Assembly (NCBI GenBank): GCA_049301475.1
Contig: JBAQKZ010000004.1
Location: 1-41,196 of the forward strand
DNA length: 41,196 nt
Source: Geobacteraceae bacterium
GTDB lineage: Bacteria > Desulfobacterota > Desulfuromonadia > Geobacterales > Geobacteraceae
Direction: 5' to 3'
Made by a program: the position numbers and the translations under genes. Positions 1,837-39,971 of this stretch are shown piece by piece (position 1 is the first letter of the stretch; the number at the start of each line of letters is the position of its first letter). The notes beneath the pieces are model-generated. The model had not been told where the DNA came from, did not search any database, and worked only from the letters and a program-made list of their open reading frames with translations.

Positions 1837-1921
1837 GGCTGTAGTAATGTACGTGGTTGTACGCCTTCGTAGCCTTAATCCTCGCCGCCTTGATTTCATC
1901 CTCGATTTGAAATTGGTATTA
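1837..1921. mobile_element. Partial MITE copy (right-hand ~80 bp, orientation A) ending ...GATTTGAAATTGGTA + TTA
   Basis: Aligns with the right half of the full copies at 37524-37646 and 39888-39968. The terminal inverted repeat ends at 1918 and is followed by TTA. Confidence 0.65.
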
Positions 1922-11409: not shown

Positions 11410-11988
11410 ATGAAAGTCCGTGACAGCGGCATGCCCGATGAAGGGATGTGGACAGGTTTTTTCGATCCGGCCAAGGTACTGGCTGTTTTCGGCCTTGACC
11501 GGGGAGTCCGGGACCTGGTGGAATTCGGTTGCGGCTATGGAACATTTACCCTGGCCGCCGCCGGAATCACCGCAGACGCTGTGCATGCCCTGGACATAGA
11601 GCCGGAGATGGTGGGTGTAGTCCGGCAAAAATGCGTCGAAGCCGGCATTGCCAATGTCCGGGCAACGGTACGTGATTTCGTGATTGAGGGAACCGGACTT
11701 GACGACAATTCCATGGATGCCGCCCTGCTTTTTAACATCCTGCATCACGAAGAGCCTGTAGCCCTGATGAAAGAGGCCCTTCGCGTGCTCAAGCCGAACG
11801 GCATGCTGGCCGTCATTCACTGGAACTATGATCCCACGACCCCACGAGGTCCGGCCATGGAGATTCGCCCCCGACCGGAACAGTGTATCGAGTGGGGGAG
11901 AGAAGCCGGATTCCGTTTCGATGAGCAAAACCGCTACGACCTGCCGCCATACCACTACGGCTTGCTCTTCAGGAAACCCTTCGCCTGA
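11410..11988 (+). CDS. Class I SAM-dependent methyltransferase
   Basis: 192 aa with motif I VEFGCGYG and post-I/II motifs (LDIEPEM, LLFNILHH, LKPNG). Its ATG overlaps the TGA of an upstream 48-codon ORF. Confidence 0.85.
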   Translation: MKVRDSGMPDEGMWTGFFDPAKVLAVFGLDRGVRDLVEFGCGYGTFTLAAAGITADAVHALDIEPEMVGVVRQKCVEAGIANVRATVRDFVIEGTGLDDNSMDAALLFNILHHEEPVALMKEALRVLKPNGMLAVIHWNYDPTTPRGPAMEIRPRPEQCIEWGREAGFRFDEQNRYDLPPYHYGLLFRKPFA

Positions 11989-12010
11989 TAACGCCTTTAC
12001 TGCCCGTGAG

Positions 12011-12139
12011 TCATACCAATTTCAAATCAAAGATGCAGTCAAGGCGGCGAGGATTGAGGCGACGAAGGCATACATCCAGTATGTTGAGGAGCCGAAGACG
12101 AGCCAACGAAGAGGGCGCTTTGATTTGGAATTGGTATCA
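12011..12139. mobile_element. Full-length MITE copy (orientation B), 123-bp core 12014-12136 flanked by TCA/TCA
   Basis: Terminal inverted repeats are TACCAATTTCAAATCAAAG and CTTTGATTTGGAATTGGTA (18/19 matches). TCA flanks it directly on both sides. It differs at 2-3 positions from the copies at 37524-37646 and 39764-39886. Confidence 0.8.
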
Positions 12140-12164
12140 GCCATTACAAAGGGGGGAGACAATC

Positions 12165-12494
12165 ATGAAGGTAGGCATCATTCGTTGTCAATTGACCGAG
12201 GATATGTGCCCCGGCAGCACCGATTTCAAGGTTGCCGGGGAAGGCACAATGGCCTTCGAGGAGACCGGTCCGGTAGAGATTATCGGATTTCTTTCGTGCG
12301 GCGGCTGCTCCGGCAAGAAGGCCGTCACACGGGCCAAGATGATGGTTGACCGGGGGGCAGAGGCAATCGTGTTCGCCTCTTGCATGAAAAATGGCAACCC
12401 CATAGGGTATCCTTGTCCGCACTTCGCGGCTATCAAAGCGGCGGTCGAGAAAAGACTCGGGGCCGATACGAAGATCATAGACTGGACCCACTGA
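12165..12494 (+). CDS. CGGC-domain protein
   Basis: The real start is MKVGIIRCQ..., after a GGGGGGAGA RBS. It contains the SCGGCSGKK motif. The 5' extension in the track ORF (from 12006) is translated MITE sequence. Confidence 0.8.
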   Translation: MKVGIIRCQLTEDMCPGSTDFKVAGEGTMAFEETGPVEIIGFLSCGGCSGKKAVTRAKMMVDRGAEAIVFASCMKNGNPIGYPCPHFAAIKAAVEKRLGADTKIIDWTH

Positions 12495-18813: not shown

Positions 18814-19572
18814 ATGCAAAGCAAGGTAAAACTCGACAATCTGAACGTCCATTTCGGAAAGACCCATGCCGTCAAGATGGTCACCATGGATTTTCGCGCA
18901 AACAGCGTAACCGCCATTATCGGGCCGTCCGGCTGCGGCAAGTCCACCGTGCTCAGAAGCATCAACCGTATGCACGATCTGGTTCCGGCAGCGCGGGTAA
19001 CGGGAAAGGTTCTGCTGGACGGTACGGACATCTACGACAAGGACATTGATCCGGTCTCCATCAGGAGGCGGATCGGCATGGTGTTCCAGAAGCCGAATCC
19101 CTTTCCCGCCATGTCCGTTTATGATAATGTAATAGCCGGTTACAAGCTGAACGGCCGAATGAAACGGGATGAGGCCGATGCGGTTGTAGAATCGAGTCTG
19201 AAACGGGTGGCTCTGTGGGACGAGGTCAAGGACCGGCTGAAGGCAAACTCCATGGAGTTGTCCGGAGGACAACAACAAAGGTTATGCATCGCCAGAACCA
19301 TCGCAATCAAGCCGGAGGTGATCCTGATGGACGAGCCGGCATCGGCCCTCGACCCTATCTCGACCCTGAAGATCGAAGAGTTGATCGAGGAATTGAAGGA
19401 GCGGTACACAATCATCATCGTCACCCACAATATGCAACAGGCCGCCCGCGTCTCCGATTTCACCGCTTTCCTTTACCTGGGTGAGTTGATAGAATTCAAC
19501 GACACAAAGAAGATATTCACCAACCCCGACAATAGGCATACCGAAGACTACATTACCGGTCGGTTCGGATAA
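18814..19572 (+). CDS. pstB: Phosphate ABC transporter ATP-binding protein PstB
   Basis: Walker [10 protein letters not shown], signature LSGGQQQRL and the typical PstB C-terminus [10 protein letters not shown]. Confidence 0.97.
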
Positions 19573-19612
19573 GACGCCAGGCAGAGGATTTACATTCTTT
19601 ACCTTTACCTTT

Positions 19613-19742
19613 ATTACTCCGGCAATTAAACATATCAATGGTAGGGGCGGCGCTTGCTCCGCCCAATCGGGGCGCGGCAAGCAGGGGCGCGGCAAGCAGC
19701 GCCCCTACATCATGGGTTGTGATGTTTAATTGCCGGAGTAAT
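19613..19742. repeat. 130-bp palindromic element between pstB and phoU
   Basis: The outer arms are perfect over 21 bp: ATTACTCCGGCAATTAAACAT (19613-19633) against ATGTTTAATTGCCGGAGTAAT (19722-19742). Inner arms are TAGGGGCGGCGCTTGC and GCAAGCAGCGCCCCTA. The core has a tandem GGGGCGCGGCAAGCA x2. A T7 run sits at 19750-19756. Confidence 0.8.
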
Positions 19743-19766
19743 ACCTGTGTTTTTTTGGAGGTTTTG

Positions 19767-20444: not shown

Positions 20445-20521
20445 TACCAATTCCAAATCAAAGCGCCCTCTTCGTTGGCTCGCCTTCGGCTCCTCAACGT
20501 GCGTGGTTGTGCGCCTTACGC
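20442..20521. mobile_element. Partial MITE copy (left ~77 bp, orientation A) starting right after the phoU stop TAA
   Basis: TAA + TACCAATTCCAAATCAAAGCGCCCTCTTCGTTGGCTCGCCTTCGGCTCCTCAAC... matches the consensus left arm and interior. Similarity is lost about 17 nt before the rnpB 3' end. Confidence 0.65.
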
Positions 20522-20537
20522 TACATGTAACAAAATT

Positions 20538-20909
20538 GGTCGAAGCAGCCCATAAGCCGGGTTCTGTCCCCGCCGCGGGTTACCCTGCGACAGGTGATGG
20601 CCATTCCTCTAGGACCGCCGTTACCGACGGCCTCAAGCAGCCAACCCGGAAGCACGGGCGGGCCACCCTTAACGCTTCCCTATTTGGCCTTGCTCCTGGT
20701 GGGGTTTACCTGGCATCCGTCGTCACCGCCGGACCCGGTGAGCTCTTACCTCACCCTTTCACCCTTACCCGCCGAAGCGGGCGGACTGCTCTCTGTGGCA
20801 CTTTCCCTGGGGTTGCCCCCGCTGGACGTTATCCAGCACCATACCCTGCGGAGCCCGGACTTTCCTCCCCCTGCGCAAGCAGGCGGCGGCCATCCTGACT
20901 GCTTCGACC
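20538..20909 (-). ncRNA. rnpB: RNase P RNA, bacterial type A
   Basis: The reverse complement reads GGTCGAAGCAGTCAGG...GGAGGAAAGTCCGGGCTCC...GGTAAGGGTGAAAGGGTG...ACAGAACCCGGCTTATGGGCTGCTTCGACC. The P1 stem is formed by the two ends, and the conserved P4/CR-I and CR-V motifs are present. Confidence 0.95.
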
Positions 20910-22937: not shown

Positions 22938-23014
22938 TGGTGGGCCCACCAGGACTCGAACCTGGGACCGACCGGTTATGAGCCGGTAGCTCTAGCCAAC
23001 TGAGCTATAGGCCC
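22938..23014 (-). tRNA. tRNA with CAU anticodon (elongator Met or, more likely, lysidine-modified Ile2), CCA encoded
   Basis: Reverse complement: GGGCCTATAGCTCAGTTGGCTAGAGCTACCGGCTCATAACCGGTCGGTCCCAGGTTCGAGTCCTGGTGGGCCCACCA. It gives a full 77-nt cloverleaf. The G1-C72 pair excludes an initiator tRNA. Confidence 0.93.
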
Positions 23015-31942: not shown

Positions 31943-32162
31943 ATTGTCTCTCTGCTGTGCGCGTGAGGTTTTTAAAGCCCAGGCGGAATACTCATTTGCA
32001 CGGGAGCCTTGCGAAGTCGTGGTGTGCTGCCCCTTTACGCGGGATTTGCCTGAAGCGGCTCCAAGTGTCCCACTTTTTAGGGAACTCGCTCGGAGGCCCT
32101 GTAACCAACGGCATGGCGGAGAGACAAGCTAAGGGGGGCTGATTACAGCCCCTTTTTATTTT
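31937..32162 (+). ncRNA. Candidate structured small RNA (~190 nt body plus terminator), 6S-like rod architecture
   Basis: A 17-bp closing helix pairs 31944-31960 with 32111-32127. Inner helices include GGAGCC/GGCTCC (32003-32008 against 32057-32062). An asymmetric internal bubble carries a small 3'-side hairpin (TCCC..GGGA). There is no convincing ORF, and the unit is bounded by its own promoter and terminator. Confidence 0.5.
32133..32162 (+). terminator. Rho-independent terminator
   Basis: GGGGCTG (32135-32141), loop ATTA, CAGCCCC (32146-32152), followed by TTTTTATTTT. Confidence 0.75.
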
Positions 32163-37520: not shown

Positions 37521-37649
37521 TTATACCAATTCCAAATCAAAGCGCCTTCTTCGTTGGCTCGTCTTCGGCTCCTCAACATACTGGTTGTATGCCTTCGTCG
37601 CCTCAATCCTCGCCGCCTTGACTGCATCTTTGATTTGAAATTGGTATTA
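37521..37649. mobile_element. Full-length MITE copy (orientation A), core 37524-37646 flanked by TTA/TTA
   Basis: Its reverse complement differs from the 12014-12136 copy at 2 positions. TTA flanks it directly on both sides. Confidence 0.8.
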
Positions 37650-37858: not shown

Positions 37859-39013
37859 TTATCCTATTCTACGCAACCCGTCGGCAATGCGTATCGTTGC
37901 GCCGCGCCATGTGGGGAATATCCCTGCCACCGTTCCGATCAGTGCAGCAGCAGCCAGGTCCAGATAGATGGTAAGCGGGGAGACGGTAAAGGCGGGAAAG
38001 AACTGGGCGAGTTCGATTTCTATCCAGTGGGCCGCCGGGAAGGTGAGCAGCACCCCTGCAATGCCGCCGATCATCGTGATGACGAGCGATTCGCCGAAAA
38101 CGATTGCGGCGATATGGCAGGCACCGAAACCGAGGGTCTTCATGGTGGCGTACTCAGCGATCCGCTCTCTGGCGGTCATCGCCATGGTATTGGCCGACAC
38201 CACCATTATGATGATAATTACCACGTAAGAGACAATCTGTATCGCAACCATGATCGCCTCTGTCATAGAGACGAAGCCCATCTGAAAGGCCTTTTCCGTC
38301 TCTGTCAATGTTTCGGCAAGGGAGTTCCTGAAGGTTGTGTCCACGGCTGCCGACACTTCGGCAGCCAGTTCGGGCCGGGTCACTCCGATCACGTAGAATC
38401 CTGCCTGGTCGGCCCTGCGAGCGGTGGCCCGCCGCACTGTTTCGTTCAGGTAATCCCAGTGGAACAACAGGACTCGCTCTTCCGTGCTTTTTTCAGCTCC
38501 ACGGTAGACGCCGCGCAGCACGAACTCCCACTGTCCAGGAAAAATCGTCCCCCGTAACGTGATCTGGTCCCCCGTCTTCCAGCCGTACTTGTCCGCAAGC
38601 TTCTTGCCGACTATGCACCCCTTCCGGTCAAGAAGGAAGGCCGTCTTCTGCTCCGGGGCAAGGAGGAACTCCGGGTAGAGTTCCAGATAGCTCTTGGGCT
38701 CCACGGCATAATTGGCAAAAAAATTCTTTTCGTTGATGTAAATGCCGCCGAACCAGTTTCCCCACGAAACCCCTTTAACGCCTGGTATCTGGCGAATCCT
38801 GTCCTTGTAGGAGATGGGGAGAGAAAAAATCAGTGATATTGAATTGCGTGTGACCAGGCGGGTGGCGGAGGAGTGTTCAACCCCAAAGTACCAGAGTCCT
38901 ACCAGTGTACGGAGGAGACCGAAGGCGAGAATAGCTATGGCGACGCCTGCGACCGTCAACGCCGAGCGGAGTTTGTGGCGAAAGGCGTTTCTGATGATGA
39001 GTCGTATGAACAT
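37859..39013 (-). CDS. ABC transporter permease, FtsX/MacB type
   Basis: 384 aa with the same architecture as 9087-10250. Confidence 0.9.
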   Translation of the reverse strand: MFIRLIIRNAFRHKLRSALTVAGVAIAILAFGLLRTLVGLWYFGVEHSSATRLVTRNSISLIFSLPISYKDRIRQIPGVKGVSWGNWFGGIYINEKNFFANYAVEPKSYLELYPEFLLAPEQKTAFLLDRKGCIVGKKLADKYGWKTGDQITLRGTIFPGQWEFVLRGVYRGAEKSTEERVLLFHWDYLNETVRRATARRADQAGFYVIGVTRPELAAEVSAAVDTTFRNSLAETLTETEKAFQMGFVSMTEAIMVAIQIVSYVVIIIIMVVSANTMAMTARERIAEYATMKTLGFGACHIAAIVFGESLVITMIGGIAGVLLTFPAAHWIEIELAQFFPAFTVSPLTIYLDLAAAALIGTVAGIFPTWRGATIRIADGLRRIG

Positions 39014-39020
39014 GTTGCAC

Positions 39021-39707
39021 CTAGGCTGTTAAGACCCCTTTGTCCAACTGCCTGATAAGGTGCGCCCTTTCGGCTGCCCGCGCGTCATGGGTTACCATGA
39101 TGATGGTCTTGCCGAACTCATCCACGAGGCGCGCCATGAGTTGCAGGATATCCGCAGCGGAAACCCGGTCCAGATCGCCGGTCGGCTCGTCCGCCACCAG
39201 GATTGCCGGGTCGGTCACAACCGCCCGGGCGATGGCCACTCGCTGCTGCTGTCCGCCGGAAAGCTGTGAGGGATAATGTTCCATCCTGTCTGCCAGACTG
39301 ACCAGTTCAAGGGCCAACTCCACGTGCTCGCGCCGCTCCTTGCGGGAGAGGCCGGTCAAAAGGAGAGGAAGCTCCACGTTTTCATGGGCGGTCAGGACCG
39401 GGATGAGGTTGTAGAACTGAAAAATGAAGCCGACATTTGCGGCTCGCCACGTAGTGATATCCGCGTCGCTCATGGCGGTGATATCCAGACCTCTCACCCG
39501 GACGGCTCCTGAGTCCGCCTGGTCAAGCCCAGCGATCAGGTTTAGGAGCGTGCTTTTCCCTGACCCCGACGGTCCCATAAGCGCAAGAAACTCTCCATCG
39601 GCGATATCCAGGTTTATATCCTGGAGCACAGGGATGATCTGGGAGCCACGCCGGTAGGACTTGGAGAGATTTTTTATTTCGACTATGGGAGGTTTATTGT
39701 TATTCAT
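39021..39707 (-). CDS. ABC transporter ATP-binding protein (MacB/LolD-like)
   Basis: Walker A GPSGSGKST, signature LSGGQQQR and Walker B LVADEPT. Confidence 0.95.
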   Translation of the reverse strand: MNNNKPPIVEIKNLSKSYRRGSQIIPVLQDINLDIADGEFLALMGPSGSGKSTLLNLIAGLDQADSGAVRVRGLDITAMSDADITTWRAANVGFIFQFYNLIPVLTAHENVELPLLLTGLSRKERREHVELALELVSLADRMEHYPSQLSGGQQQRVAIARAVVTDPAILVADEPTGDLDRVSAADILQLMARLVDEFGKTIIMVTHDARAAERAHLIRQLDKGVLTA

Positions 39708-39717
39708 TTAGGTACTG

Positions 39718-39971
39718 TAATACCAATTCCAAATCAAGGTGCTGTATTCGTTGGCAGGTCTTATACCAATTTCAAATCAAAGATGCAGTCAAGGCGGCGA
39801 GGATTGAGGCGACGAAGGCATACAGCCAGTATGTTGAGGAGCCGAAGACGACCCAACGAAGAGGGCGCTTTGATCTGGAATTGGTATTAGGCTCCTCAAC
39901 GTACGTGGTTGTACGCCTTCGTCGCATCTTCCTCGCCCTGAGTCACTCATTTTGATTGCAACCTGATATGA
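39718..39971. mobile_element. Older, diverged MITE copy (orientation A) split by a nested insertion
   Basis: The left part (39721-39760) and the right part (39890-39968) together align with the consensus. The terminal repeat on the right is degenerate. Confidence 0.7.
39761..39889. mobile_element. Young full-length MITE copy (orientation B) nested in the older copy, core 39764-39886 flanked by TTA/TTA
   Basis: It differs at 3 positions from the 12014-12136 copy. Removing the core plus one TTA restores GTCTTAGGCTCC, against the consensus GTCTTCGGCTCC. Confidence 0.8.

Follow-up and report, generated by a model that had tools for sequence, protein, structure and literature searches.

The stretch of DNA analysed in this work (contig JBAQKZ010000004.1, hereafter the window) is an entire metagenomic contig of 41,196 bp, whose closest relatives are metagenome-assembled genomes (MAGs) of Geobacteraceae/Desulfuromonadaceae. 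Between a methyltransferase gene ending at 11988 and a gene for a CGGC-domain protein starting at 12166, the window carries a 123-bp element with 19-bp terminal inverted repeats, a central hairpin and a duplicated triplet at its borders. [quoted passage not shown] The same interpretation had been proposed in a first-pass annotation, and every testable part of it held, namely the ends, the duplications, the empty sites, the nesting of one copy within another and the covariation of the hairpin.

Copies present in the window were searched for by nhmmer with the family alignment and by a repeat search. Three full copies, one old copy split in two and two half copies were obtained, and no others (Table 1). 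These are the six copies or fragments initially listed, except that one of the half copies is recognisable from around position 1846 and not from 1837. The 19-nt end TACCAATTYCAAATCAAAG presented nine matches with three or fewer mismatches in the window, in contrast with 0.01 expected from shuffled sequences. Pairwise differences among the three full copies amounted to 2-4 positions, so that the near identity attributed to them was confirmed with a slightly wider range than the 2-3 positions counted before, and the identical triplets flanking each one were as originally described.

The family was followed outside the window by a scan of one genome per species, and copy counts rest on the matches listed; fetched loci are designated by L and a number. 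The terminal inverted repeats of the family, TWCCAATTYCAAATCAAAG, were highly conserved, with 98.9% of the cells paired in an alignment of 60 copies. The pairing of the copy 1 repeats includes one T·G position, and 56 of 59 members of the family conserve it as U·G. The 19-bp inverted ends described for the window copies are thus a feature of the whole family, although position 2 is not fixed and may be A or T. The interior was on average 69% purine on one strand, in agreement with the skew noted before, and the G+C content of the element was 46%. Identical 3-bp flanks were found in 55 of the 76 two-ended copies listed and all of them were of the type T-N-A (TAA in 29 cases, TTA in 23, TCA in two, and TGA in one); duplication of the flanking triplet, anticipated from the window copies, is therefore found across genomes.

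Comparison of filled and empty sites, as suggested by the first-pass annotation, was possible for copy 1. The methyltransferase gene upstream of it had homologues 96% identical on L138 and 90% identical on L139/L140. In L138 the site was filled at the same position by a copy with one base difference, whereas in L139/L140 it was precisely empty (CCCGTGAG-GCA-GCC vs. CCCGTGAG-TCA-[123 bp]-TCA-GCC in the window and L138), and the predicted empty site of copy 1 aligned to L139/L140 without gaps over the junction. The ATPase gene beside copies 2 and 3 had homologues of at most 82% identity, too distant for an equivalent comparison. A second test was provided by copy 3, which is nested in the old copy: excision of copy 3 plus one TTA (126 bp) restored the old copy in register, the restored sequence was identical to copy 2 at 100 of 122 positions in an end-to-end alignment, and the nested junction GGCAGGTCTTAGGCTCC was equal in length to GGCTCGTCTTCGGCTCC of an intact copy. 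A MITE derived from IS630/Tc1-mariner elements, with TA duplication, predicts five extra bases that were absent both at the empty site and at the nested copy, and this candidate was rejected. The element inserts at T-N-A, overwhelmingly at TAA or TTA, and duplicates these 3 bp. It has been mobile recently, as had been claimed from the near identity of the full copies and is now borne out by the precise empty site and by the nested copy. Given the duplications and the empty sites, it is insertion and not descent that places the copies.

Table 1. Position and characteristics of the copies of the 123-bp element found in the window, and of the parts of copy 1.
Feature	Position	Strand	Characteristics
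Full copy 1	12014-12136	+ (purine-rich strand)	Flanks TCA/TCA
Full copy 2	37524-37646	-	Flanks TTA/TTA at 37521-37523 and 37647-37649
Full copy 3	39764-39886	+	Flanks TTA/TTA; lies within old copy
Old decayed copy, split by copy 3	39721-39968	-	Own parts 39721-39763 and 39890-39968; flanks TAA and TGA
Half copy	1846-1918	-	Profile positions 1-72 (one terminal repeat, one arm, hairpin); abuts TTA at 1919-1921
Half copy	20445-20520	-	Profile positions 52-123 (hairpin, one arm, one terminal repeat); abuts TAA
Left target-site duplication TCA, copy 1	12011-12013		Identical to 12137-12139
Right target-site duplication TCA, copy 1	12137-12139		Identical to 12011-12013
Left terminal inverted repeat, copy 1, TACCAATTTCAAATCAAAG	12014-12032	+	Pairs with 12118-12136
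Right terminal inverted repeat, copy 1	12118-12136	+	Reverse complement TACCAATTCCAAATCAAAG
Direct repeat 1, copy 1, TTGAGGCGACGAAGGCA	12055-12071	+	Left of hairpin stem, overlapping it
Central hairpin, copy 1, GGCATAC-ATCCA-GTATGTT	12067-12085	+	Minimum-free-energy fold; 5 Watson-Crick and 2 G·U pairs
Direct repeat 2, copy 1, TTGAGGAGCCGAAGACG	12084-12100	+	

A two-gene ABC-transporter operon (37859-39707) stands between copies 2 and 3, which are inverted relative to each other. A composite transposon formed by both copies around the transporter genes, which this arrangement resembles, was considered and rejected: the two carry separate TTA duplications and copy 3 sits inside the old copy, so that a joint movement is not indicated. 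The nhmmer segments of this split old copy were 39721-39763 plus 39883-39968. The half copy at 20445-20520, for which the nhmmer match spanned 20445-20517, begins right after the TAA stop codon of phoU and ends 16 nt from where the RNase P RNA gene, at 20537-20906 on the minus strand, has its 3' end; it is located between both genes. Other RNA genes of the window are those for 6S RNA (31946-32126) and one tRNA (22941-23014). A distinct palindromic element of 132 bp was found at 19612-19743, between pstB (ending at 19572) and the likely start of phoU (19768); its inverted ends measured 27 nt (TATTACTCCGGCAATTAAACATATCAA), its internal hairpins were rich in G+C, and it was present once in the window and never in the fetched loci. 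Location of Chunjie-1, a MITE of G. uraniireducens, within a phosphate-uptake operon has also been reported.

The consensus of the central hairpin on the purine-rich strand was GGCGTAC-N5/6-GTACGTT, forming five Watson-Crick pairs and two G·U pairs at the base. The hairpin first described as CATAC...GTATG or CGTAC...GTACG is accordingly real and forms as indicated, but it comprises seven pairs, including the two basal G·U, instead of five; the form CGTGC/GTGCG at 20498-20513, which pairs through wobbles only, was also found as described. The compensatory change deduced from the window copies proved to be one of several recurrent double changes in the family. Covariation was counted in the 60-copy alignment (A1). 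Among distinct sequences, 35 had G-C at the pair 57:72 and 22 had A-U, with G·U in one and no pairing in another one; pairs 60:69 and 55:74 covaried as well. Two copies located on one contig, L031:528 with A-U and L031:6491 with G-C, presented no differences at all outside the hairpin, the copy of L080 differed from the main consensus at the two 57:72 positions alone, and in L048 the switch was repeated on the same background; the 57:72 switch is therefore not a single inherited event. In addition, the loop-closing C-G pair had changed to U-A in L068, L117, and L107, and the basal G·U had changed to G-C in several subfamilies. Overall, eight pairs showed compensatory double changes, as compared with 2.8 ± 0.8 in shuffled and at most five in slid controls, and 43 alignment cells carried double changes vs. 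at most 11. Long variants of 145-232 bp always displayed a larger or an extra hairpin at the central place.

Pairing outside the hairpin is not established. A rod-like pairing of the whole interior was rejected, as interior pairs occurred at around chance density and covariation outside the hairpin came mainly from one subfamily (double changes at 25:107 and 45:86 were confined to a single one); the two arms, both rich in purines on one and the same strand, are unable to pair with one another. Columns 23-27 and 105-109, adjoining the terminal repeats on the inside, covaried with each other as well, which could equally well reflect the fitting of both ends to one transposase. The hairpin, on the other hand, has been kept paired by compensatory substitutions in the lineages that multiplied. 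As the copies descend from a few lineages of this kind, the pairing constraint would act, most simply, on the propagation of the element, which suggests that the hairpin helps the element to propagate; a host function is less likely.

Two direct repeats of 17 nt, TTGAGGCGACGAAGGCG and TTGAGGAGCCGAAGACG, bracket the hairpin. In the family consensus they match at 14 of 17 positions, a score equalled by 18 out of 2000 shuffles. Variants of 92-93 bp (L006, L033, and L120/L123) corresponded to exact deletions between these repeats, by which the hairpin is lost, whereas variants of 75-84 bp resulted from other internal deletions (75 bp in L029, 78 bp in L069 and L072, and 84 bp in L013). Both half copies of the window keep the hairpin and stop just past it, an anecdotal observation with only two cases. 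A composite variant of 198 bp appeared in three MAGs (L011:3343-3540, L016:2587-2784, and L058:4699-4896); in it the hairpin is swapped for a unit of around 84 bp in which several palindromes rich in G+C (CCCTCAC...GGGAGAGAG...) are combined; this unit probably represents another small repeat family, which was inserted in the MITE and propagated together with it. A longer and unrelated hairpin (GGGGACACGT...) occupied the central spot in L105:503-648, and in L109:5972-6171 the stem was kept and 77 nt were inserted in its loop. Insertions and replacements appear to be concentrated at the hairpin.

More than 100 further copies were obtained in at least about 25 genomes of Geobacterales/Desulfuromonadaceae. 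They were about 74-95% identical to the window copy, mostly 86-95%, with a modal length of 122-124 bp among the copies listed, and nearly all the loci listed came from MAGs of Geobacter, Geobacterales or Desulfuromonadaceae. One diverged 123-bp copy was located on plasmid pGLOV01 of an isolate, Trichlorobacter lovleyi SZ (L144:5996-6118, NC_010815.1 26215-26337). It overlaps the annotated start of cobN (cobaltochelatase CobN), and the annotated N-terminus of this protein may derive from the element or be mis-called. The ends of the element had no sequence match in the full-text literature searched, nor were they found in the supplements of genome papers cataloguing multicopy sequences of G. 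metallireducens, G. bemidjiensis, and P. carbinolicus, and the family is apparently undescribed so far. An unrelated metagenome contig (L115:4280-5190) was retrieved by a chance match to the scan pattern; it contained a sequence of around 60 nt (…CTGCAACAAACCCCGCGATGAC…TTCCAATWCCARATCAAAG…) three times at a spacing of around 440 bp, with coding-looking stretches in between, resembling a cassette array.

Among the explanations other than a MITE, the one that survives best, still an improbable one, is a module acting as structured non-coding RNA (for instance a small RNA, or a hairpin with an mRNA-stabilising or regulatory role) with a primary host RNA function and a secondary mobility. The fold of the purine-rich strand (-51.5 kcal/mol, z = -8.1 vs. 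shuffles) would fit with it, but most of this energy comes from the terminal repeats. The excess of compensatory pairs over the shuffled and slid controls, and the G·U pairs, which work on one strand only, would also be expected of an RNA, whereas the chance density of interior pairs outside the hairpin, mostly found in single subfamilies, would not. At the gathering score Rfam detected in the window only the RNase P RNA, the 6S RNA and one tRNA, with no match to the copy up to an E-value of 10, and the copies lacked promoter-like or terminator-like sites. The orientation with respect to co-directional flanking genes was unbiased (27 vs. 20 by crude open reading frame calls, and 24 vs. 22 by codon-usage-scored calls). 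Only within 60 nt upstream of start codons was there a weak, non-significant excess of the purine-rich strand in sense (19 vs. 10 antisense; P = 0.14, for a distance chosen post hoc), which might be related to the CCUC-rich sequence that an antisense copy would put beside the ribosome-binding site. Finally, the duplications and empty sites show that copies were placed by insertion, which argues against RNA function as the primary one.

Proximity to gene ends was examined as well. Around 20% of the copies abut a stop codon and many are located 15-40 nt upstream of a start codon. In 15 of the 76 copies listed the element lies exactly on the stop codon of the neighbouring gene, and the duplication regenerates the stop. 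A preference for stop codons was rejected, as eight clean cases were observed in contrast with 7.3 expected from the TAA/TTA sites per intergenic region; abutment on stop codons follows from the choice of target and from the survival of copies in intergenic DNA.

Considerably less probable is a palindrome-associated element moved as single strand by an HUH/Y1 transposase, IS200/IS605 or REP/RAYT-like, with the hairpin as recognition structure. A conserved and covarying hairpin with strand-specific wobbles, a strong strand asymmetry in base composition, and the end of both window half copies at the hairpin are in line with this possibility. Against it stand the 19-bp inverted ends and the demonstrated 3-bp duplication, in which the target is repeated on both sides and not on one side only. 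IS200/IS605 and REP elements are not known to have terminal inverted repeats or to duplicate their target.

Pfam scans covered 20 of the 38 predicted open reading frames (ORFs) of the window (37 called genes plus ORF 1306-1872), and among those 20 a single transposase-related gene was found, ORF 1306-1872. It encodes the N-terminal half of a transposase of the IS1595 family (PF12760 zinc ribbon, E = 7e-20), in which the zinc ribbon is retained together with the beginning of the DDE domain; the ORF runs straight into the half copy 1846-1918 and breaks off where the latter begins. The complete remnant spans 1216-1872 and its left end, GATGACTATCAAGTTAGCTCAGGAA, overlaps the stop codon of an EamA-family gene. 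The domain match and the direct contact with the half copy could suggest that the element is an internal-deletion derivative of this IS1595-family element. Full-length IS1595 relatives (L155 and L156), however, end in (A)TGACTATCCAGTTAGCTCAG, a sequence also present at 1216-1240 of the window, upstream of the ORF, and as it differs from the TWCCAATT... of the MITE, the remnant is unrelated to the MITE ends. IS1595-family elements, moreover, make 8-bp duplications, vs. 3 bp here, and such an origin is extremely improbable. The earlier statement that no cognate transposase is present in the window was thus corroborated within the ORFs scanned, the only transposase-related gene among them being a non-cognate one that the first-pass annotation had missed.

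The element is non-coding. The annotation had contemplated that the repeat might turn out to be part of a structured RNA or of a gene family; neither was found, in view of the Rfam results indicated above and of the absence of any reading frame open in more than 32 of the 60 copies. An in-frame peptide-encoding insertion module, like the Rickettsia palindromic elements, is scarcely credible: the 123 + 3 = 126 bp do make up 42 codons, the window copies are stop-free (open in frame 1 on both strands, ORFs 11828-12349 and 12006-12494) and 33 of the 60 copies measure exactly 123 bp, but lengths vary from 122 to 126 bp and are not a multiple of three in 25 of the 60, and intragenic copies were only 1 of 76 by codon-usage gene calls and 5 of 106 by crude ORF calls.

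Several results weigh against the MITE interpretation or limit it, and most of them concern the autonomous partner. Inverted pairs of the 19-mer (4-6 mismatches at most) or of its outer 12 nt at a spacing of 0.5-4 kb yielded only neighbouring MITEs and chance intragenic matches, so that no pair of MITE ends 0.5-4 kb apart enclosing a gene was found in around 1.1 Mb of fetched loci. The metagenome scan for the terminal repeat followed by G or T, excluding MITE interiors, gave MITE variants and chance coding matches, and a viral scan for an autonomous element gave nothing useful. An all-against-all megablast revealed no multicopy segment of at least 300 bp, as would be expected of an insertion sequence (IS). 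A full-length IS with the same terminal 19 bp, which the first-pass annotation had proposed to look for, was consequently found neither in the fetched loci nor in the metagenome or viral scans. The element ends, TWCC..., were unlike those of ISGlo4, the single IS5-like element compared, and ends of the IS5 family usually start with G. ISGlo4 (pGLOV01) was rejected as a partner, its ends being unrelated, and tblastn with it detected no IS5-like gene in any fetched locus. Regarding the sample itself, the scan pattern demanded TACC at one end while the unselected end was mostly TTCC, from which it follows both that position 2 is A or T and that the collection of copies is biased. Lastly, some of the short variants without hairpin (75-93 bp) keep intact TAA duplications; the hairpin may not be strictly required, or these variants may be the result of deletions after insertion.

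Under the MITE interpretation, the element would be moved in trans by a DDE-type transposase binding the terminal repeats and making 3-nt staggered cuts at TWA. The enzyme would be encoded elsewhere, and it might be of the IS5 family (IS1031/IS427/ISL2-group) or PIF/Harbinger-like, an assignment for and against which the chances seem roughly balanced. We infer this type of enzyme from the length of the duplication and the target alone. The assignment to IS5 subgroups or PIF/Harbinger-type elements made by the first-pass annotation fits well with the TNA duplication, and it keeps its provisional character as the searches gave no autonomous partner. As for the hairpin, one possibility is that it acts as a cruciform or a flexible hinge that brings together the two ends of a very short element.

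A more specific version of the MITE interpretation, which we regard as rather unlikely though clearly less so than any of the alternatives discussed above, is that the hairpin and the direct repeats form a cis structure required for mobilisation (cruciform or hinge for synapsis, or single-strand recognition) and that the enzyme belongs to a new, TWA-specific bacterial lineage related to PIF/Harbinger. Were this version correct, the family would stand as the counterpart in bacteria of the Tourist MITEs, for which no structural requirement of this kind has been described.

The Geobacterales, in which the family is abundant, are of importance for metal reduction, bioremediation, and electromicrobiology. 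Cataloguing the family is of use when annotating genomes and accounts for some of the breaks in metagenomic assemblies, as several copies lie at contig ends, whereas presence or absence of individual copies offers markers for strain typing. That the hairpin of a selfish element has repeatedly undergone compensatory change amounts to a clean natural experiment, which points to a structural requirement for propagation; the general understanding of MITE function remains unchanged by these findings.

With respect to known systems, the element shares with Tourist MITEs, PIF/Harbinger elements and the IS5 family a 3-bp T-N-A duplication, mostly TAA or TTA, and with Tourist MITEs also the short length, the terminal inverted repeats, the absence of coding capacity and the high number of copies. 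Unlike the Tourist-type MITEs, which are eukaryotic, it is bacterial and contains a conserved central hairpin flanked by direct repeats. The IS1031, IS427, and ISL2 groups of the IS5 family generate TNA/TWA 3-bp duplications, as PIF/Harbinger elements do, but the ends of the present element begin with TWCC and are not the G-rich ends of the IS5 family. For canonical Harbinger elements, 3-bp duplications and a relationship to the IS5 family have been described (PMC12730594). With the IS1595 family, the tie is the truncated transposase gene adjoining a half copy, the terminal repeats being unrelated.

One MITE has been named in a relative of Geobacter, Chunjie of G. uraniireducens Rf4, which is intergenic, multicopy and provided with terminal inverted repeats (PMC3184786, PMC10969869); it measures 178-235 bp and is A+T-rich, its terminal repeats being of 21 bp and its direct repeats of 9 bp (PMC3184786). 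Both are MITEs of the same bacterial group. Identity with Chunjie was rejected, as the element of the window, with 123 bp, 46% G+C, 19-bp repeats and a 3-bp duplication, represents a different family. Correia/NEMIS elements of Neisseria, ERIC, RUP, and bcr1 are comparable, being 100-160 bp long with inverted ends and long RNA hairpins, and located between genes, beside gene ends or starts. Correia elements duplicate TA, whereas 3 bp are duplicated here, and they contain a central site for binding (and bending) by IHF, a possible functional analogue of the central hairpin; inspection by eye revealed no IHF-like consensus in the element. Unlike in Correia/NEMIS, only the ends and the central hairpin of 5-7 bp pair. 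The element therefore belongs to an ordinary class, and the central hairpin kept by compensatory mutations is its one unusual trait.

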